From NCBI GenBank assembly GCA_038206475.1, contig JBBRAU010000002.1, positions 13,892-77,891 of the forward strand: 64,000 bases of DNA, in the 5' to 3' direction. Made by a program: the position numbers and the translations under genes. This document shows positions 238-64,000 of the stretch, in pieces. Origin of the DNA: Patescibacteria group bacterium. Lineage in GTDB: Bacteria > Patescibacteriota > UBA1384 > JBBRAU01. The number at the start of each line of letters is the position of its first letter. The first letter of the stretch is position 1. The notes under the pieces are model-generated. The model was given only the letters and a program-made list of their open reading frames with translations. It did no database searches and was not told the DNA's origin.

Positions 238-313
238 GGGCCTGTAGCTCATCTGGTAGAGCGCAGCATTCGCATTGCTGAGGTAAGGAGTTCGAGTCTC
301 CTCAGGTCCACCA
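238..313 (+). tRNA. tRNA-Ala (anticodon CGC)
   Basis: 76-nt cloverleaf read by eye: acceptor GGGCCTG/CAGGTCC with G3:U70 Ala identity pair, D-arm GCTCATCTGGTAGAGC, anticodon loop TTCGCAT, T-arm GGAGTTCGAGTCTCC, encoded CCA. Confidence 0.85.
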
Positions 314-395
314 TTGGCTAGTCATCTGACAAGATGGCTGGCCAATGGTTTATTAAAGGCTCGAACGACCAGCGAGCTTGCGAGCTGGAGTTGGG

Positions 396-4850: not shown

Positions 4851-4892
4851 CTCAATACTCACTTCCCCGCCTCAGGCGGGGATTTTTTGCGT

Positions 4893-6318: not shown

Positions 6319-7002
6319 ATGAAAGGGATCACGCTGCATGGCACCCCGGAGGGCTGGCGGAAAATGCCAGTCAAAACCGGGACCGTACGGCTCCACAGAA
6401 CCACGCCGGGGCGGCTGTGGTTTCAAACGCTCATCGTGGAGGAGGGCAGGGAGCATGTGTTCCTGCCCGATGGCTCCGCCGTGGTCAAGGGTCTCGGTGG
6501 GGTCACCACCCTGATACCGGGCCCTAAATACGGCGGCGGCGAAGTCACCCCCGTGACGACGCCGGCCGGGATGGTAGTGGTGAACACCACGACCACCCCG
6601 GGGTCAGCTCGGACACTTCTAAACGCCCGCGGGTGGGGCGGGTATATTCTTGACCCGCTCACCGCAACGGCAACGCCATTCGGCTGCCCCCCAATCCGGT
6701 GGGCAGCCGAACTGCGACCGGACCAGTTCATAGTTGTCGACCCAGGCGGCTACTACGCCTACCGAGTCGACGTGACCTTCCCCATCAACCCCCGCCGCGT
6801 CCAGGGTGACGTTGGCGGCAACGGCAGGTTCGACCTGTCGGATGCCCTGTTGGCGTTGTACTTGCTTCACGGGGATATCAACGCCAACCCCGGCCAGAAA
6901 CAGGCCGCGGACGTCGATGGCGACGGCTTCGTAACGCTGGAAGACGTCATCCGGATGCTGTACGCAGCAACCGGAACGCCATTCAGCTCCCCGCTCTGGT
7001 AA
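6319..7002 (+). CDS. Protein with C-terminal dockerin-like (paired EF-hand Ca-binding) domain
   Basis: DVGGNGRFDLSDALLALYLL and ADVDGDGFVTLEDVIRMLY repeats; by eye the gene is markedly more GC-rich than its neighbours, with CGG/GGG/CCG codons. Confidence 0.55.
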   Translation: MKGITLHGTPEGWRKMPVKTGTVRLHRTTPGRLWFQTLIVEEGREHVFLPDGSAVVKGLGGVTTLIPGPKYGGGEVTPVTTPAGMVVVNTTTTPGSARTLLNARGWGGYILDPLTATATPFGCPPIRWAAELRPDQFIVVDPGGYYAYRVDVTFPINPRRVQGDVGGNGRFDLSDALLALYLLHGDINANPGQKQAADVDGDGFVTLEDVIRMLYAATGTPFSSPLW

Positions 7003-7033
7003 TCGGGCGGGGAACATCAAAAAAACAAACTAC

Positions 7034-19501: not shown

Positions 19502-19532
19502 CAAAAATAGCGGCCCCTCAGGACCGCTATTT
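19502..19532. terminator. Bidirectional hairpin terminator downstream of rpsI
   Basis: ATAGCGG...CCGCTAT stem flanked by AAAA and TTTT. Confidence 0.5.
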
Positions 19533-19670
19533 TATACAATAGATTGAGCGAGGTGCTGGCTTTGCCAAGCCTCGCGAACTCCTGCTGAAAGGGAGGAGGT
19601 GATTTGCCTGCAAATCACGGTCGGAAGGGAAAATTACAAGCGTAGCGCAGTAGCTGTCCCTCCGAGCCCT

Positions 19671-36666: not shown

Positions 36667-36720
36667 AGCTGCCTCAAAGAGGAGATGCTGGCGCATCTCA
36701 TCACTCTGCCTCGTCCGACT

Positions 36721-36755
36721 AAAAGAGCCCCGACCACATGGCCGGGGCTCTTTTT
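36721..36755. terminator. Hairpin terminator between rpsJ and the antisense small ORF
   Basis: 8-bp stem GAGCCCCG/CGGGGCTC, T5 run on plus strand, U4 on minus. Confidence 0.6.
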
Positions 36756-36776
36756 ATGTCCTATTGAGAAGAAGAA

Positions 36777-38586: not shown

Positions 38587-38605
38587 ATGAGGATGCTTGC
38601 CGGCC

Positions 38606-38902
38606 TCAGGGGCCGGCGGTGTCCCACGCGGACTCGGGCAGGAGCTCACTCTCCCTGCGGGCACTGTATATCCCCAGCAGGGCCAGATCCTTCTCGTTTT
38701 CCTCGCCGCGGGCCCCCCTGTACAGGGGCAGGAACTCCTTGCACCAGTCCTGCACGTCCGCATCCTCGGACGTGCAGTCACCGGCGATGGCCAGCCTTTC
38801 GCCATCGTCTTGCTGGTACCTTTCTGTGCCGTCGGTGATGTCGAAGAAGCAGAACATCACCACGAGCACCACGCAGGCGAACACTTCAACGATTTTTTTC
38901 AT
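38606..38902 (-). CDS. Small secreted or membrane-anchored acidic Cys-containing protein, unknown function
   Basis: GGAGG SD 7 nt before ATG; N-terminal hydrophobic segment MKKIVEVFACVVLVVMFCFF; own terminator; AGG/CTG/GTG/GAC codon usage. Confidence 0.5.
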   Translation of the reverse strand: MKKIVEVFACVVLVVMFCFFDITDGTERYQQDDGERLAIAGDCTSEDADVQDWCKEFLPLYRGARGEENEKDLALLGIYSARRESELLPESAWDTAGP

Positions 38903-38982
38903 TGCAGGCCTCCTTGGCCGCGAAATAAAAGGAACAGAGAGTGACTATTTAATTTATGCATTATTTAGTATACTTTGTCAAT

Positions 38983-39804: not shown

Positions 39805-40206
39805 ATGATGATTGATCTTCAACATATTGATGCGCGTGCTGAACCGCTAACAGAAGAAAAAGTGCAGGCCATCCTGCTTGGATGCCGGATACGGACAGGA
39901 AAAGCAGCCAGAAAACTGTCGGCCGAATGGTATGAACTGAAATATTACCCAAAGTGGAAGGAGGGCTGGCTGCAGCTCAAAATACTGCGTGAAACCCCCT
40001 ATCCCGAGCGAACAGCCATGCTCTATCACTTCCTCGTCACCTTGCACCTTCACCACTGCTTATCCCACACGCACCAACGTCTTGTCGGGCCGATCACGCT
40101 CTGCGACGCCATGGATGAACAAGTGGCGCTGCTCTGCCAAAATGTCAGCCGTAACCCACCGTGGCGGGAGTGGTGGCTGTTGCAGCATATTCCTGGATAC
40201 CGCTAA
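39805..40206 (+). CDS. Hypothetical protein (His/Cys-rich segment LHLHHCLSHTH)
   Basis: 133-aa ORF with upstream AAAGGGG; ends at a hairpin terminator. Confidence 0.45.
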   Translation: MMIDLQHIDARAEPLTEEKVQAILLGCRIRTGKAARKLSAEWYELKYYPKWKEGWLQLKILRETPYPERTAMLYHFLVTLHLHHCLSHTHQRLVGPITLCDAMDEQVALLCQNVSRNPPWREWWLLQHIPGYR

Positions 40207-40208
40207 CC

Positions 40209-40236
40209 AAAACCCCGCTCTCCGGCGGGGCTTTTT
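40209..40236. terminator. Bidirectional terminator shared by the plus-strand insert and fusA
   Basis: CCCCGC/GCGGGG stem flanked by AAAA and TTTTT. Confidence 0.6.
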
Positions 40237-40295
40237 ATAACATAAGCAAATTATCGAGAAGCGTTCAGTTTGGCTGGATGTTTTTAAGCTCCGCG

Positions 40296-42480: not shown

Positions 42481-42891
42481 TCAAAGAAGGCCGAGGTTTT
42501 GCTTATGACGAATAGAGGCTTTGGTACTGTCGCCGGATTTTCTCGGTCGGAGCGACCGGTATTGTAGGTTTGGCGGCCAATATAGCCTCCACGGGTTTAA
42601 CCTGACAAAAAAACGGAGGCGCATGGCGCCTCCGAAGAGTCGTTTTTGAGATTTACATGACTCGACGATGCACACATCATCGGCATGGTCGAACATCGAC
42701 ACAATGACGAACAAGAGCAGCAGCGGATACGGCTCAACATTCTCGATCAGGCCAGGAGCGCTTGGTAGCGTTATGCTGAAGTTGCCCGCCTGAGTATTGC
42801 CAGTTGACGGCGTTTTGCGCACGATGGGGCCGCTATTTCCTACAGGCAGCACGTCTGAATCAATGTGGATGACGGAGCGATTTTCAGGCAT
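42481..42891 (-). CDS. ORF of doubtful coding status downstream of the STAS gene
   Basis: Only open frame in the region; N-terminal two-thirds has plausible codon usage, but the frame runs through a strong terminator hairpin and a rare-codon W/R/P-rich tail. Confidence 0.2.
   Translation of the reverse strand: MPENRSVIHIDSDVLPVGNSGPIVRKTPSTGNTQAGNFSITLPSAPGLIENVEPYPLLLLFVIVSMFDHADDVCIVESCKSQKRLFGGAMRLRFFVRLNPWRLYWPPNLQYRSLRPRKSGDSTKASIRHKQNLGLL
42607..42634 (-). terminator. Strong rho-independent terminator
   Basis: 9-bp stem CGGAGGCGC/GCGCCTCCG with 3-nt loop, followed on the minus strand by U7. Confidence 0.65.
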
Positions 42892-43276
42892 TGGCTTTCT
42901 CCTGTTGCACGAAGGGAGCGAGAAACTGGACGGCTTCTTGCTCGGTTGCAAAAATAGTGAAGGTTTTCGTCAAGCCGGCGGCGTCTAGTACCCGTTGCGG
43001 TTGATCCGTGATCTGCAGCAACACGAGCTGACCCCCGTACCCGCGAATGCATCTGAGGGACCAGACAAGCCCTCCCAGCCCCGCCACGTCCATGTACGTA
43101 ACTAAGTGCATATTGAGGCCAATATAACGCCGGCCCAACAACTTCATTTTGACAACCATCTCGAGAAGACCAGGCGAGCTGTATGTGTCGAGTTCACCCT
43201 GAAGATCCAAAATGGTTACGCCGTCTACTTCTCGCTGCTCAATATCAAACTCCACCGACCTTCTCCTTATTGTCAC
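42884..43276 (-). CDS. STAS-domain protein (anti-sigma-factor antagonist-like)
   Basis: ILDLQGELD...LVTYMDVAGLGGLV...GGQLVLLQITDQPQRVLDAAGLTKTFTIFATEQEAVQFL; GTG start. Confidence 0.7.
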   Translation of the reverse strand: MTIRRRSVEFDIEQREVDGVTILDLQGELDTYSSPGLLEMVVKMKLLGRRYIGLNMHLVTYMDVAGLGGLVWSLRCIRGYGGQLVLLQITDQPQRVLDAAGLTKTFTIFATEQEAVQFLAPFVQQEKANA

Positions 43277-43320: not shown

Positions 43321-43348
43321 AGCAACAAAATCCGGCCTGAAGCCGGAT
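43321..43348 (-). terminator. Hairpin terminator after rpsG
   Basis: ATCCGGC/GCCGGAT stem followed by a U-rich tract on the minus strand. Confidence 0.5.
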
Positions 43349-44356: not shown

Positions 44357-44385
44357 CAAAAAGCCCCGCCAAGCGGGGCTTTTTG
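44357..44385. terminator. Bidirectional terminator after rpoC
   Basis: 8-bp stem AGCCCCGC/GCGGGGCT with 3-nt loop, flanked by AAAAA and TTTTT. Confidence 0.65.
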
Positions 44386-54414: not shown

Positions 54415-54476
54415 GATGGCTTGAGTATATCAAAAAAATGGCATCATGAGACGCCATTTTTGACTATATATAGACG

Positions 54477-55851: not shown

Positions 55852-57057
55852 TTAGCGGGCTGCGGTCAGCAGTTGGACTGAAGACGGCAATAAGGAAATA
55901 ACACTGACACCGGTCGGCACGACCACCTGCGTTTTGGCCAAATCCAAAACGAGTGTGCCGAGCGGTTTCTGGCTGGCGTCGATACTGACAACAACTGAGT
56001 TAGGACTCAATGAATTAATGAAACTAGCTGGGCCAGAGAGCACCACTTTGACGCTTGAGGGCGTCGTGCTGACCAACTTAGCGTTGGGCGGCAGTTTGAC
56101 GTCAAAGCCAACCGTTAATTCACGTTCGGTCTGGGGCTGACTGAGTGTGGCTTTAACCTGAACCGTAGCGGCTCCGCCGACCAGATTAACACCCTTCGGC
56201 AACACCAAACTAACCACTTTGCTTAGGTCGCCGGCACCGACGCCATCAAGCGGCAGTGGTGCCGTATCAATCGTCTGCAGACCGCTGATCAGACTGGCCT
56301 CACTACTAATGCTGATTGTGGCCGGATTGACCACAATGGCTGACAGGATGCTGCCGTCGGACGTGTGGCCACTGGTGACAACATGGACCCCGACATTTTT
56401 AACCGGCCCGGCCTTACTGAGCTGAATAACGACGTGGGCCGTCTGCGGCTCAAAGCGCACATGCGTCAGTGCTTTGCCAGAGGCATCTTCGGCCAGCCAG
56501 CCGACGTCGCGCTCAAAGCCATCGGTTTCACCATTTAATTTTACCTCAGCCGAAACTTGGGCTAAGGCATTCAGTTCACTTTGCGGACCGCGAACAGTCA
56601 CATGATCCGGCGTCAACGCCGTCGTACCGAGGACACTGCCAGCGGCTGCTTGACCACTGGTCTTAATTGCGGCCTTCACTTGCTTGGCCTTCTCCGGCTC
56701 CAGGCGGACAATAACGTGGTCTGGGATAACCTGAGCTATCTCTACGCCAGGCACCAGACTGGTTACCGTCACCGGCACACTGACGGTGCCCTCTTTAAGC
56801 GCCGCCAGCTCCAATTTGGCCTGAAAAGAATCGCTCTTTAAGGCCTGCCAGACCGCCCCGGGCGCTGAGACAATAATACGGACCGAGGCTGTGTCATACA
56901 CAGGCACCAGGCCGGCTGGCACGCTTGAGACGGTCAATGGCACGTCGCCTGGCACACTGTCTTGGCGCGCCTGATTAGCCGATACGTACAACCATAAGCT
57001 CGCCGCAATCAGCACGGCCAAAGCCTTGGTGGCAAAATGTTCAAATAGCCCCTTCAC
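55852..57057 (-). CDS. cdaR: YbbR-domain protein (CdaR-like regulator of diadenylate cyclase)
   Basis: N-terminal TM, repeated beta-rich YbbR-like segments, immediately downstream of and overlapping cdaA. Confidence 0.6.
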   Translation of the reverse strand: MKGLFEHFATKALAVLIAASLWLYVSANQARQDSVPGDVPLTVSSVPAGLVPVYDTASVRIIVSAPGAVWQALKSDSFQAKLELAALKEGTVSVPVTVTSLVPGVEIAQVIPDHVIVRLEPEKAKQVKAAIKTSGQAAAGSVLGTTALTPDHVTVRGPQSELNALAQVSAEVKLNGETDGFERDVGWLAEDASGKALTHVRFEPQTAHVVIQLSKAGPVKNVGVHVVTSGHTSDGSILSAIVVNPATISISSEASLISGLQTIDTAPLPLDGVGAGDLSKVVSLVLPKGVNLVGGAATVQVKATLSQPQTERELTVGFDVKLPPNAKLVSTTPSSVKVVLSGPASFINSLSPNSVVVSIDASQKPLGTLVLDLAKTQVVVPTGVSVISLLPSSVQLLTAAR

Positions 57058-57848
57058 TTGCGCTCCTTAAGCATGCGCAGTAGCGCTCGCCGCAGCTCAT
57101 CGGCGGTCAGATCAAAGCGAATTTTGCGATCATAGGCCAGTGAAATGGTCCCCTTTTCTTCAGATATCACCACGCTGACGGCATCCGTTTGCTGCGCCAG
57201 TGCCAAAGCTGCCTTATGTCGGGTGCCCAACTGATATTCCAGGGATCCCTGGAATACGGGCAGTGTCGTGCTGGCCGCGGTAATGGTATTACCTTGGATA
57301 ATGACCGCGCCGTCATGCAGTGGTGTCCGCGGCTGGAAAATAGTTAACAGCAACTCAAACGACAGCTTAGCGTTCAAACGCGTGCCGGTCTGGATTGTTT
57401 CTTCCAGTGAATCTTGGCGTTCGATAACCAGCAAGGCGCCAACATGCTGATTGGCGAGCGTCTCGGCGGACAACACAATGTCGTCAATGGCCTGCAGAAT
57501 TTCTGGGTGCTTCAACACGCCAAAGCGACCAACAAACTGTGTCCGGCCAAGACGCTCCAGGGCGGCGCGTAACTCCGGCTGAAAGATAATCGGAATGGCG
57601 ATAAGCAAGCCGGCCAAAATATGGTCCAGCACCCAGTTTAAGAGTTCAAGCTGCAACAACCGACCAAGTAGAAACAATACAAATAGTAGGGCGATGCCGC
57701 CGACCATACGGGCTGCTCGCGTCTCGCGGATGAGCGTTAACGCCCAGTAGCAGAGAATGGCGACGATACCGATATCTATCAGTGTCAATGGCAGTGTACG
57801 CAGGGTCATGTGCTGCCAAGTCGAACCAGCCCGCGACAGCTGACTCAT
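57054..57848 (-). CDS. cdaA: Diadenylate cyclase (c-di-AMP synthase), membrane form
   Basis: Three N-terminal TM helices and DAC blocks (GALLVIER, TPLHDGAVII, LGTRHKAALAL...ISLA); start chosen at ATG 57848 because the TTG at 57941 abuts a terminator. Confidence 0.8.
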   Translation of the reverse strand: MSQLSRAGSTWQHMTLRTLPLTLIDIGIVAILCYWALTLIRETRAARMVGGIALLFVLFLLGRLLQLELLNWVLDHILAGLLIAIPIIFQPELRAALERLGRTQFVGRFGVLKHPEILQAIDDIVLSAETLANQHVGALLVIERQDSLEETIQTGTRLNAKLSFELLLTIFQPRTPLHDGAVIIQGNTITAASTTLPVFQGSLEYQLGTRHKAALALAQQTDAVSVVISEEKGTISLAYDRKIRFDLTADELRRALLRMLKERK

Positions 57849-57960
57849 CAATGTCTGCAAGAATGTAGTGATAATGCCCACCGGTGCTGCCCCAGACTTA
57901 GCGGCGCGACTACCGCTTTGTTTTAGTGTAGCAAGGGGCAAGATCAGAAGCTACTAACAC

Positions 57961-57990
57961 AAAAGAGGCCGTCTGGCCTCTTTTGTGTTC
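57961..57990. terminator. Bidirectional terminator
   Basis: GAGGCC-GTCT-GGCCTC hairpin flanked by AAAA and TTTT. Confidence 0.65.
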
Positions 57991-58001
57991 GGAACCTAAA
58001 T

Positions 58002-58160
58002 TTATTTTATAAGTTGCACAGCAGCGTGAGCGTGCATTGCTGCCTGGAAAAAGAAGAGGCCGCCTCCGATGAGCAGCGCCACGGCGAAGGTGGCAAGCCG
58101 GTTCATTAGATGATGATCAGACGTATCTTGACTCTGTTCCGGACTGTGGTAGTAGGCCAT
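58002..58160 (-). CDS. Small membrane protein (52 aa), unknown function
   Basis: AAGGAG SD 9 nt before ATG 58160; single hydrophobic helix; followed by terminator. Confidence 0.4.
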   Translation of the reverse strand: MAYYHSPEQSQDTSDHHLMNRLATFAVALLIGGGLFFFQAAMHAHAAVQLIK

Positions 58161-58257
58161 GCGGCTATCTCCTTTTTGTTGCTCCCCTTGCAGGGCTAAT
58201 GAATGGATTGCTCCGATGAGCGTAGCACTCACCTCGCCTATAGCCGCAAGCACACAA

Positions 58258-58298
58258 GCGACAAAACAATCGGCTATTGCTAGCCGATTGTTTGTCGC
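58258..58298. repeat. 17-18 bp near-perfect inverted repeat immediately downstream of the infB stop
   Basis: GCGACAAAACAATCGGCT - attgct - AGCCGATTGTTTGTCGC (single A bulge). Confidence 0.6.
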
Positions 58299-58308
58299 AC
58301 TTCAGCAA

Positions 58309-60201
58309 TTACAGTTCGCGCTTTAGTTCTTCGGTACGGAACAGCTCCAAGACGTCACCTTCGGCGACTTCAACGTGGCCGGGCAGGCCAACGCCGGCTT
58401 CAACTCCAGCGGAAATTTCTGGCACTTCAGTCTTCTCACGGCGGAGCGATTCAACTGTCCCTTCACCGACAATTTCTTTACCGCGAAAAACATGGACCGG
58501 CTGGCCTTTGACCAGTTTGCCCTCTTCCACCCGCACACCAAGAATTTTCTCACGCTTATCGGCCCGGAAGACGCGCAGCACTTTGGCCCGGCCAACAACA
58601 ACCTCGACGGTTTCGGTTGGCAGCAAGCCCGACAGCGCCCGGCGCAGATCATCCTGCAGTTCATAAATAACGTCGTAGAGTGAAACAGGCACCTGGCTTT
58701 GCTCCGCCAGGCGGCGCACCGGTGCCGGCAGCGCCACGCGGAAGCCAATCAGAAGGCTGCCAGTGGTTTGGGCCAGCAGAATATCAGATTCCGTGATGTC
58801 ACCAACGCCGGAACGGACGGTTTTGATGGCTACTTCACTGGTGCCAATATCTTCAAGCAGCTGGGCAATGGCGTCAATTGAGCCCTGCACATCAGCTTTT
58901 AAAACAATCGACAGCTCGCGTAGTCGGCCCAGGCCAACCCGCTCGGCCAAGGCTGACATGCCTTTGGTTTTCAGTTGGGCAACCGATTTGACCACGTCTT
59001 GCTGTTTGGCAAAACTGGCAGCCGCCTCACGGGCCTCTTTCTCGCTGGAGAAGACAGCCACCGACTGGCCGGCCTTCGGCACACCAGACAGACCAGCTAC
59101 GATTACCGGTGTGCCCGGCGAGGCGGCTTCAAGCCGCTCACCGCGTTCATTCTCTAGGAAGCGTACGCGGCCCCAGAATGAGCCAATGGAGATCGATTCA
59201 CCCGGATGCATGGTGCCATTTTGAATCAAGATGGTCGCCACCGCGCCACGGCCAGACTGCTTGTTGGCCTCAATAACGACTCCGACGGCGGTAGCCGCCG
59301 GATCAGCTCGCAGATTTTTCATATCAGCCACAACCATGACGGTGTCGAGCAGCGTCTCGATGCCTTCTCGACTGATTGATGAAATTGGCACAATCGGCGT
59401 CTCACCGCCCCAACCTTCGACCAATACGCCGGCTTCAGCCAGGCCGGCCTTGACCATGTCCGGATTAGCCTCTGGTTTGTCCATCTTGGTGATCGCCACA
59501 ACCAGCGGCACGTTGGCCGCTTTGGCGTGGTCAATGACCTCTTTGGTTTGCGGCTTGACACCGTCGTCGGCCGCGACAACCAAAATAATAATGTCGGTAA
59601 TGGTCGCGCCGTGGGCGCGCATGGTGGCAAAGGCGGCGTGACCCGGTGTATCAAGGAAGGTGATTTTGCGCTGATCGCCGTTTGGGCTCTGCCAGTCAAC
59701 TTGGTAGGCGCCGATGTGTTGGGTAATACCGCCAGACTCGCCAGCCACCACATTGGTTTGGCGCACTGCGTCGAGCAGAGTAGTTTTGCCATGATCAACA
59801 TGGCCCATAACAGCGACAACCGGCGGCCGCGGCCGGAGGTCAGCTTCATTAACCAGCTCAGCGGTATGCTCAGCGGCTTTGGCGGCGGTCGGCATTACCT
59901 CCGCCCCTAAGTCGTCAGCTACAATAGCGGCGGTTTCAAAATCGATCGCTTGGTTGATAGTGGCTAGTACACCGTAGCGCATGAGCGCGCCAATAACTGC
60001 GGTTGGCGGTTGGTCTAATTTGTCGGCATAGTCCCGGACACTAACCACAGGCGGCAACTCGACGCGCTTTTTAACAACCACAGCCGCCACCTGCACCGGC
60101 TGGTTGGCCAAAAAAGCCGCCCGCTCAACTGACTGGCGTACTTCGGCTTTGGCCTCCTTTTTAGAAGGCTTGCGTTTTTTAGAGCGACTATGTTGTGCCA
60201 T
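58309..60201 (-). CDS. infB: Translation initiation factor IF-2
   Basis: [13 protein letters not shown]1 motif and IF-2 C-terminal domains; start at ATG 60201 (track starts TTG 60207). Confidence 0.95.
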   Translation of the reverse strand: MAQHSRSKKRKPSKKEAKAEVRQSVERAAFLANQPVQVAAVVVKKRVELPPVVSVRDYADKLDQPPTAVIGALMRYGVLATINQAIDFETAAIVADDLGAEVMPTAAKAAEHTAELVNEADLRPRPPVVAVMGHVDHGKTTLLDAVRQTNVVAGESGGITQHIGAYQVDWQSPNGDQRKITFLDTPGHAAFATMRAHGATITDIIILVVAADDGVKPQTKEVIDHAKAANVPLVVAITKMDKPEANPDMVKAGLAEAGVLVEGWGGETPIVPISSISREGIETLLDTVMVVADMKNLRADPAATAVGVVIEANKQSGRGAVATILIQNGTMHPGESISIGSFWGRVRFLENERGERLEAASPGTPVIVAGLSGVPKAGQSVAVFSSEKEAREAAASFAKQQDVVKSVAQLKTKGMSALAERVGLGRLRELSIVLKADVQGSIDAIAQLLEDIGTSEVAIKTVRSGVGDITESDILLAQTTGSLLIGFRVALPAPVRRLAEQSQVPVSLYDVIYELQDDLRRALSGLLPTETVEVVVGRAKVLRVFRADKREKILGVRVEEGKLVKGQPVHVFRGKEIVGEGTVESLRREKTEVPEISAGVEAGVGLPGHVEVAEGDVLELFRTEELKREL

Positions 60202-60393
60202 ATGCAATTACACTACTACAAATACGCTTCTTTTTCAATTGACTGACCGCGTAAAGTTGGGCAGATTCGCAAACGAGGTAGATTAAGTGCTGTCTTGACA
60301 AACCTGCCGACCTGGTAAAATAATGGCCTAAATGGGGTAGGGTGGTTTTGTACTTTCTGTGACACTCTCCCCGGCTCGTGCACGAGGAGGTGC

Positions 60394-60714
60394 ATGATGA
60401 CCCGCTACAGACTGCACTTCGACAAGCCAGACCAGATGCATGCGACTAGGCAACTCGTAGAAAAACGGTTCGGTCCGGAGGCAGCCACCGTATTCTATGA
60501 GGCCAGCGACAACCTAGAGCACGTGCCTGGGCATATCGGTCAGCTGCTCCTTGGTAAAGAGTGTTTCGTGGTCATAAGCAACTCTCAGCTCGCAAGCGAG
60601 CAGTCCTCGAAGCCAGAAGGGTCAGGCGGATATGGGCTGCTTATAATCAGAGCTCTGGGCGGGATCATCGGCTACGACCAACACGGTACCGCCGTCGCGT
60701 GGGCAAACACCTAA
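60394..60714 (+). CDS. Hypothetical protein (106 aa), divergent from infB
   Basis: GAGGAGG SD before ATG 60394; followed by hairpin terminator. Confidence 0.45.
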   Translation: MMTRYRLHFDKPDQMHATRQLVEKRFGPEAATVFYEASDNLEHVPGHIGQLLLGKECFVVISNSQLASEQSSKPEGSGGYGLLIIRALGGIIGYDQHGTAVAWANT

Positions 60715-60716
60715 CA

Positions 60717-60750
60717 AAGAGCCGGGAATTACTCCCGGCACTTTATTTGT
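60717..60750. terminator. Bidirectional terminator between the hypothetical gene and gyrA
   Basis: GCCGGGA/TCCCGGC stem with 5-nt loop followed by a T-rich tract. Confidence 0.55.
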
Positions 60751-60766
60751 TGCCGTGTCCGGCCAA

Positions 60767-63837: not shown

Positions 63838-63932
63838 GGAGTGAGCTGGACGATCGTCATGACGATTGTGATGGCGATCGGGCTCTTCCTGCCTATCTCG
63901 CTTCGCGCCTACCGTTTCGAACAGTTCTAATC

Positions 63933-63962
63933 AAAAACCCGCCGAACCTGGCGGGTTTTTTA
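63933..63962. terminator. Bidirectional hairpin terminator
   Basis: CCCGCC-GAACCT-GGCGGG flanked by AAAAA and TTTTT. Confidence 0.55.
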
Positions 63963-64000
63963 TGGTTTCGGTTGAGCTAAAAATGGAGACTCAATATTTC

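Follow-up and report, generated by a model that had tools for sequence, protein, structure and literature searches.

We found that the long inverted repeat following infB, the gene for translation initiation factor IF-2, is probably an ordinary Rho-independent terminator, possibly a leaky one, that ends the infB unit in the symmetric long-palindrome style of this genome. The analysis covered one continuous stretch of 64,000 nt (64 kb; the window), and all coordinates refer to it unless a contig is named. We show the structure of the hairpin, its place, its statistical significance and its equivalence to other gene-end hairpins, and we infer that RNA 3′ ends are produced at the site. In this uncultured, Patescibacteria-like genome the infB transcription unit likely ends at the hairpin, a point of little import beyond annotation. 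It is a further instance of a well-known kind of element, and a reading other than termination is unneeded.

On the plus strand the repeat consists of GCGACAAAACAATCGGCTA (58258-58276), TTGC (58277-58280) and TAGCCGATTGTTTGTCGC (58281-58298). As infB and the small membrane-protein gene downstream are both minus-strand genes, the RNA to consider is complementary to this sequence and reads UAA-uugcugaagu-GCGACAAACAAUCGGCUA-GCAA-UAGCCGAUUGUUUUGUCGC-uugugugcuu (the sequence 3′ of UAGCCGAUUGUUUUGUCGC is also given as uugugugcuugcgg). A first-pass annotation of this DNA had described a stem of 17-18 bp with a 6-nt loop. The stem and its arms stand, with 18 pairs and a single bulged A/U, but A58276 pairs with T58281, so that the loop is 4 nt long. 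The same annotation had correctly placed the hairpin 10 nt after the infB stop codon (spacer 58299-58308, stop 58309-58311) and about 100 nt from the small gene; the exact distance from the stem to the ATG at 58160 is 97 nt. The innermost 13 bp are without mismatch. In the 5′ to 3′ direction the sense strand carries a clamp (GCGAC), an A-rich segment (AAACAA), a core (UCGGCUA), the loop, the second core arm (UAGCCGA), a U-rich segment (UUGUUUU) and the second clamp arm (GUCGC). Counted from the loop outwards, the core is therefore followed by the ACAAACAA:UUGUUUUGU segment, the GCGAC/GUCGC clamp and then the U/G-rich UUGUGUGCUU.

The inverted repeat is real and far beyond chance. The 41-mer folds with −27.3 kcal/mol, compared with −7.25±2.46 kcal/mol for dinucleotide shuffles (z=−8.15), and none of 200 shuffles was as good. 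When folds were slid along both strands of the 64 kb, the infB hairpin ranked third among the non-coding 46-nt folds. Only three loci of the window have a perfect inverted repeat of 13 bp or more around a loop of 3-8 nt, versus 0.005 per window in dinucleotide shuffles; all three lie directly after stop codons, and the two others are canonical terminators. A larger structured RNA around the hairpin was rejected, since a 96-nt fold gained few flanking pairs and its z of −4.2 comes from the infB hairpin itself. Rfam 15 gave no family at gathering score for the element, the matches in the window being two tRNAs only, and a sensitive Rfam scan of 57900-58450 returned one chance-level match (proV, 13 bits versus a gathering score of 88.5).

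Table 1. Features at the infB 3′ end and comparable gene-end hairpins, in window coordinates (energies in kcal/mol)
Feature	Position	Strand	Description
infB (translation initiation factor IF-2)	58309-60201	−	630 aa from ATG; Pfam IF-2, IF2_N, GTP_EFTU, EF-G_D2; stop TAA 58311-58309
Spacer UUGCUGAAGU	58299-58308	−	10 nt, infB stop codon to base of full stem; from the sequence
Full hairpin	58258-58298	−	18 bp, one bulged U in 3′ arm, GCAA tetraloop; folds and inverted-repeat search
Putative inner terminator hairpin CAAUCGGCUA-GCAA-UAGCCGAUUG	58267-58290	−	10 bp, 5 G-C, GNRA loop, −14.6; terminator-style scan
U-rich tract UUUUGUCGCUUGUGUGCUUGCG	58245-58266	−	11 U in 22 nt, directly 3′ of inner stem; tail score 3.63
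Spacer before small gene	58161-58257	−	97 nt; GGAG ribosome-binding site; from the sequence
Single-pass membrane-protein gene (MAYYHSPEQ...)	58002-58160	−	52 aa; no Pfam family; also called on contig L081
Canonical terminator of the small gene, AACACAAAAGAGGCC-AGAC-GGCCUCUUUUGUGUU	57956-57989	−	15-bp perfect palindrome (A-tract/core/U-tract/extra pairs); closing pairs beyond U-tract: AACAC-AAAAG...CUUUU-GUGUU
cdaA (diadenylate cyclase)	57054-57941	−	Pfam DAC, CdaA_N; synteny in L081-L084
Terminator candidate	43331-43347		ΔG −10.5; tail score 4.12
Terminator candidate	44363-44379		ΔG −13.7; tail score 3.88
Terminator candidate	54439-54456		ΔG −10.0; tail score 4.96
Terminator candidate	57965-57980		ΔG −10.4; tail score 3.87
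Terminator candidate	63937-63956		ΔG −13.7; tail score 4.28
Same-design gene-end hairpin	4864-4882		
Same-design gene-end hairpin	19504-19533		
Same-design gene-end hairpin	36717-36760		Closing pairs beyond U-tract: GAC-AUAAAAAGAG...CUCUUUUA-GUC
Same-design gene-end hairpin	40202-40241		
Same-design gene-end hairpin	44357-44385		
Same-design gene-end hairpin	54429-54464		Closing pairs beyond U-tract: GUC-AAAAAUGG...CCAUUUUUUU-GAU
Same-design gene-end hairpin	57949-57996		
Same-design gene-end hairpin	60707-60753		
Same-design gene-end hairpin	63930-63963		

The hairpin has the parts of an intrinsic terminator, for which we looked for a stem of about 5-15 bp containing G-C pairs, a loop of 3-8 nt and, straight after the stem, a U-rich stretch of some 7-9 nt. 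Its stem is stable both over the inner 10 bp (−14.6 kcal/mol) and over the full 18 bp, and it lies in non-coding DNA, on the infB sense strand, just past the TAA. On the infB mRNA UUUUGUCGCUUGUGU is directly 3′ of the inner 10-bp stem, which gives a U-tract of UUUUGUCGC after that stem, or of UUGUUUUGU after an 8-bp stem; the tract is interrupted and a moderate match. The statement in the first-pass annotation that no clean U-run follows the stem thus holds for the full-length stem only. For the inner stem the run is present as UUGUUUUGU within the 3′ arm, and it was overlooked because the maximal stem had been taken.

We scored the tails for U, weighted by position, in a way that approximates the d'Aubenton-Carafa/TransTermHP type of score. 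The inner stem (−14.6 kcal/mol, tail 3.63) then ranks with the other candidate terminators between genes of the window, whose ΔG runs from −10 to −23 and whose tails score 3.3-5.0 (examples in Table 1). With thresholds placed just under the values of the infB site (ΔG≤−14, tail≥3.6, hairpins of at most 30 nt), nine loci passed. Non-coding DNA, 5,968 bases in all, contributed eight of them, and the 58,032 bases given to ORFs or tRNAs contributed one. This roughly 78-fold enrichment indicates that a hairpin with a U-tail is a specific gene-end signal in this genome. The sole ORF-assigned match at these thresholds, 42614-42634 (minus strand), is a strong, canonical terminator-like CGGAGGCGCC-AUG-CGCCUCCG followed by UUUUUUUG and lies within ORF 42481-42951, suggesting that this ORF is over-extended or that it contains an internal attenuator.

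The infB hairpin is equivalent to hairpins at other gene ends. Palindromes of the order A-tract, core, loop, core, U-tract occur at at least eight other gene ends in the window, including the terminator 270 nt downstream, and are mostly situated between co-directional genes; some of them also continue into closing pairs beyond the U-tract (Table 1). Compared with this house style the infB site differs only in degree, by a core with less G-C, an interrupted U-tract and a clamp of 5 bp. The first-pass annotation had set a terminator aside on account of a long, AT-containing stem without a U-run. We find, however, that the AT part is the pairing of A-tract with U-tract, which is normal for the terminators of this window. 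A consensus terminator scan likewise listed neither the infB hairpin nor the terminator at 57956-57989, because it takes both stems on through the U-tract. Some caution is thus due in genomes with long A-tract/U-tract palindromic terminators, where the maximal stem conceals the U-run and both a reader and a simple scanner miss real terminators.

Published surveys contain comparable elements. In Term-seq data the median loop is 4 nt and stem nucleotides total 20-33, and A-rich tracts are often found upstream of terminator hairpins, which is put down either to bidirectional terminators or, where termination is unidirectional, to further pairing with the U-tract (PMC12207403). The infB hairpin resembles the symmetric, bidirectional type of intrinsic terminator (with an upstream A-tract, common in Firmicutes) in its 4-nt loop, in a U-tract directly 3′ of the nucleating stem, in a 5′ A-tract complementary to that U-tract, in its position a few nucleotides past a stop codon and in the recurrence of the design at other gene ends. 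It departs from that type in its core, which is 50% G-C, in a U-tract broken by G and C, in the 5-bp G-C-rich clamp, and in lacking a convergent gene that would need activity on the reverse strand. [quoted passage not shown] Both have a stem far above the 7-9 bp average, flanking A- and U-tracts, an A-U-rich middle of the stem and G-C-richer ends (PMC10325885). Unlike at TerR, no antitermination system was detectable at infB, and long palindromic stems are here a genome-wide style.

Pairing alone cannot tell an RNA function from a DNA function, or one strand from the other, because all pairs are Watson-Crick. Small asymmetries between the strands nevertheless favour the infB-sense RNA. The loop is GNRA (GCAA) on the sense strand versus UUGC opposite, and the bulge adds a U to the sense U-run (UUUU versus UUU). 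The tail score is 3.63 in sense and 2.89 in antisense (UUUGUCGCACUUCAG), the 22 nt past the inner stem contain 11 versus 8 U, and the fold energies are −27.3 and −26.4 kcal/mol. The A-tract of a bidirectional terminator is present, since ACAAACAA pairs with UUGUUUUGU, but the antisense tail is the weaker one. Convergent placement was not found: the minus strand encodes infB, the small gene and cdaA alike, and the 2 kb to the left contain no gene of the plus strand.

In the mechanism that we propose, RNA polymerase would transcribe the A-rich 5′ arm, then the core and then the GCAA loop. Once the 3′ arm begins to leave the enzyme, 7-10 inner bp (UCGGCUA/UAGCCGA together with A-U pairs) would form within the exit channel at the time when the active site contains the weak rU:dA hybrid of UUGUUUUGU, with release around UUUUGU. 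Pairing of the A-tract with the U-tract, and the GCGAC/GUCGC clamp, would lengthen the helix, and slightly read-through RNA, as well as the DNA palindrome itself, would give a very stable 18-bp hairpin that could shield the infB 3′ end against exonucleases. The first-pass suggestion of an RNA stability element is therefore partly compatible with a terminator, because any terminator hairpin also shields a 3′ end. For the release point we infer a position around UUUUGU (58261-58266). By eye, GA-UUGUUUU-GU can be set against GC(U)7RU, a strong release-site motif in the HUB model of a 2026 preprint (bioRxiv 10.64898/2026.05.29.728758); the G at −11, six of the seven U and the GU at −2/−1 fit, whereas position −10 is A, not C. 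This alignment would put release at the end of UUUUGU. Some features fit a terminator less well. The core stem, with 5 G-C among 10 pairs, is weaker than most other terminators here, which have G+C-rich cores, and the U-tract UUUUGUCGC is interrupted by G and C. The 5-bp clamp beyond the U-tract is unneeded for termination and absent from a transcript released at UUUUGU, and its presence is only loosely explained by a terminator.

In this lineage infB (58309-60207, minus strand) lies between gyrA and cdaA-ybbR and not in its classical setting, the nusA-infB-rbfA operon. An identical IF-2 product was called on Logan contig L081, which is 7.6 kb long and identical to the window. Informative relatives of this IF-2 in a collection of 5.8 billion proteins are only P0002 (75% identity, from a groundwater assembly) and P0003 (64%); the next ones, with Patescibacteria, Berkelbacteria and Saccharimonadales entries among them, have some 50% identity, and a scan of GTDB species representatives found no IF-2 above 46% identity. 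Among relatives the gene order gyrA-infB-(variable)-cdaA-ybbR-LysM/M23 is kept, and the spacer after infB is not. In L082 and L083 a 156-aa ORF starts 8 nt past the infB stop codon; next come a PemK toxin-antitoxin pair and, behind it, the small protein's 44-aa homologue, indicating that the infB-cdaA spacer is a variable insertion spot. The inserted stretches (L082 3881-5077, L083 3967-5163) hold the unannotated 156-aa ORF, an 84-aa ORF and a PemK-family toxin. In L084 only 95 nt separate infB from cdaA, with a weak 6-bp hairpin and, by eye, a promoter-like TTGGCA-17-TACAAT; in L085 a hairpin without a U-tract follows infB and overlaps TTGACA-18-TACAAT (by eye).

The conservation that had been thought informative for the hairpin was not seen, since no related sequence follows infB in the loci of the nearest relatives (L082-L085). 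The element therefore appears specific to this lineage, and because the rearranged loci of the relatives hold no related sequence, covariation gives no evidence for or against the structure. Terminators are often lineage-specific.

The small protein has its 44-aa homologue directly upstream of cdaA in L082 (5164-5298), a relative of 75% identity, and the two share the motif LL.GGGLFF.QAA; the 52-aa protein may thus be a small CdaA-associated membrane protein. The longest cdaA ORF opens with TTG 15 nt past the 57956-57989 terminator and encodes 295 aa, versus 250-256 aa in relatives. Translation probably begins some 45 codons further on (MTLRTLPL...), which would leave room for a promoter. On the other side of infB, the interval that separates it from gyrA contains, on the opposite strand to both, a 106-aa ORF without a Pfam match (60394-60714, plus strand). 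L081-L083 have this ORF (104-105 aa) in the corresponding position, and in the window TTGACA-18-AATAAT lies ahead of it at 60295-60324. One palindromic terminator, at 60707-60753, is common to gyrA and this ORF. In L085 gyrA and infB overlap by one base.

Termination at the infB hairpin is probably incomplete, because a mere 10 nt (outer stem) or 18 nt (inner stem) separate it from the stop codon and only half of the core pairs are G-C. It may thus attenuate transcription that runs from infB into the small membrane-protein gene. In E. coli, a ribosome terminating at a stop codon partly represses terminators that lie less than about 20-27 nt away (PMC4824070). A promoter scan gave no match in the 97-nt spacer (58161-58257), where by eye we noted a weak promoter-like TTGTCG-16-TATAGG and an extended −10-like TGcTACGCT. 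With no convincing promoter in the spacer, the small gene may depend on read-through.

The strongest rival of a terminator, though an unlikely one, is an intercistronic RNA element in a read-through transcript, where the 18-bp hairpin either blocks 3′-to-5′ exonucleases after cleavage downstream or is itself cut by RNase III, and so sets different levels of infB and downstream RNA. Such elements are known: intercistronic stabilising hairpins and internal attenuators include the REP-stabilised malE and the internal terminator of rpsU-dnaG-rpoD. The infB site is like these in being a stable hairpin between co-directional genes, which could lower distal expression and protect the proximal mRNA; unlike REP, it is single-copy in the window. 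RNA processing would give a use to the five G-C-rich pairs past the U-tract, which matter only if the whole 3′ arm is transcribed. The 18-bp length of the stem, the missing promoter-scan match in the spacer (the small gene being perhaps expressed through read-through) and the strong terminator of the small gene, which could close a bicistronic unit, would suit it as well. However, hairpins of the window that are clearly terminal have the same design, in some cases with extra closing pairs too, and the inner stem is followed by a usable U-tail. The processing stems of RNase III comprise about 20 bp or more of near-continuous double-stranded RNA, so that a bulged stem of 18 bp is borderline in length for its substrates, and the hairpin is not kept in relatives. 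The functions also overlap, in that a leaky terminator stabilises a 3′ end as well.

A translation-sensitive long-stem attenuator, whose read-through would be set by the proximity of the ribosome to RNA polymerase on infB, is more doubtful still. A ribosome terminating on infB would cover the GCGAC and A-tract in the 5′ arm and might reach into the inner stem. Read-through would then extend to the small membrane-protein gene and possibly cdaA, and the complete 18-bp helix, once formed, would make the stop unusually robust, like the antitermination-resistant TerR. If true, c-di-AMP and envelope genes would be tied to translational status in a reduced-genome bacterium.

We give little credence to the protein-binding palindrome that the first-pass annotation had considered, that is, a DNA site for a dimeric protein such as a repressor of a promoter for the small gene and cdaA with its −35 element overlapping the right arm. 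The inner 13-bp dyad is perfect and, all pairs being Watson-Crick, its symmetry in DNA equals the pairing in RNA; the weak TTGTCG-16-TATAGG noted by eye overlaps the arm nearest the small gene, and L084 and L085 have sigma-70-like promoters directly after infB (by eye). That candidate promoter is poor, though, and is not in the scan. The search for further copies of the palindrome (arm and full dyad, up to 3 mismatches) yielded none in the 64-kb window and none in 85 fetched loci, and matches to the half-site (9 observed versus 4.9 expected, with 9 reached in 6 of 100 shuffles) are not above chance. The one-base bulge breaks the dyad and shifts the outer half-sites against each other, operators are not usually as long as 41 bp, no gene for a recognisable DNA-binding protein lies nearby and the strand asymmetries indicate RNA. 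The element does not resemble the operator consensuses of parS, LexA, CIRCE, Fur, cre and NrdR. A replication origin or dif-like site was rejected, gene orientation being the same on both sides and there being no skew switch.

Least probable of all is that the hairpin belongs to a family of dispersed palindromic repeats (REP- or MITE-like), or was left by recombination in a variable spacer, without an infB-specific function: the infB-cdaA spacer does vary among relatives and the hairpin has no homologue there, but it is single-copy within the 64-kb window, has no exact match in JGI metagenome contigs or IMG/VR viral contigs (from which the infB locus itself is likewise absent, so that they bear little on the rest of this genome), has neither direct repeats at its flanks nor the terminal inverted repeats that would mark a larger element, and shares the architecture of the local terminators.

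Two further sets of hairpins in the window deserve mention. At 311-348 (plus strand) a 17-bp hairpin, CCATTGGCTAGTCATCT-GACA-AGATGGCTGGCCAATGG (−29 kcal/mol), is followed by TTTATTAAAGG, a weak U-tail, and overlaps the 3′ end of tRNA-Ala(CGC) (238-313); it may be a terminator or a processing signal of the tRNA gene. The two most stable 46-nt folds (−33 and −32 kcal/mol), at 6673-6718 (both strands) and 38741-38786 (minus strand), lie inside ORFs 6619-7020 and 38597-38944, which were assigned by length; either these ORFs are miscalled or the folds are structured elements in coding sequence.
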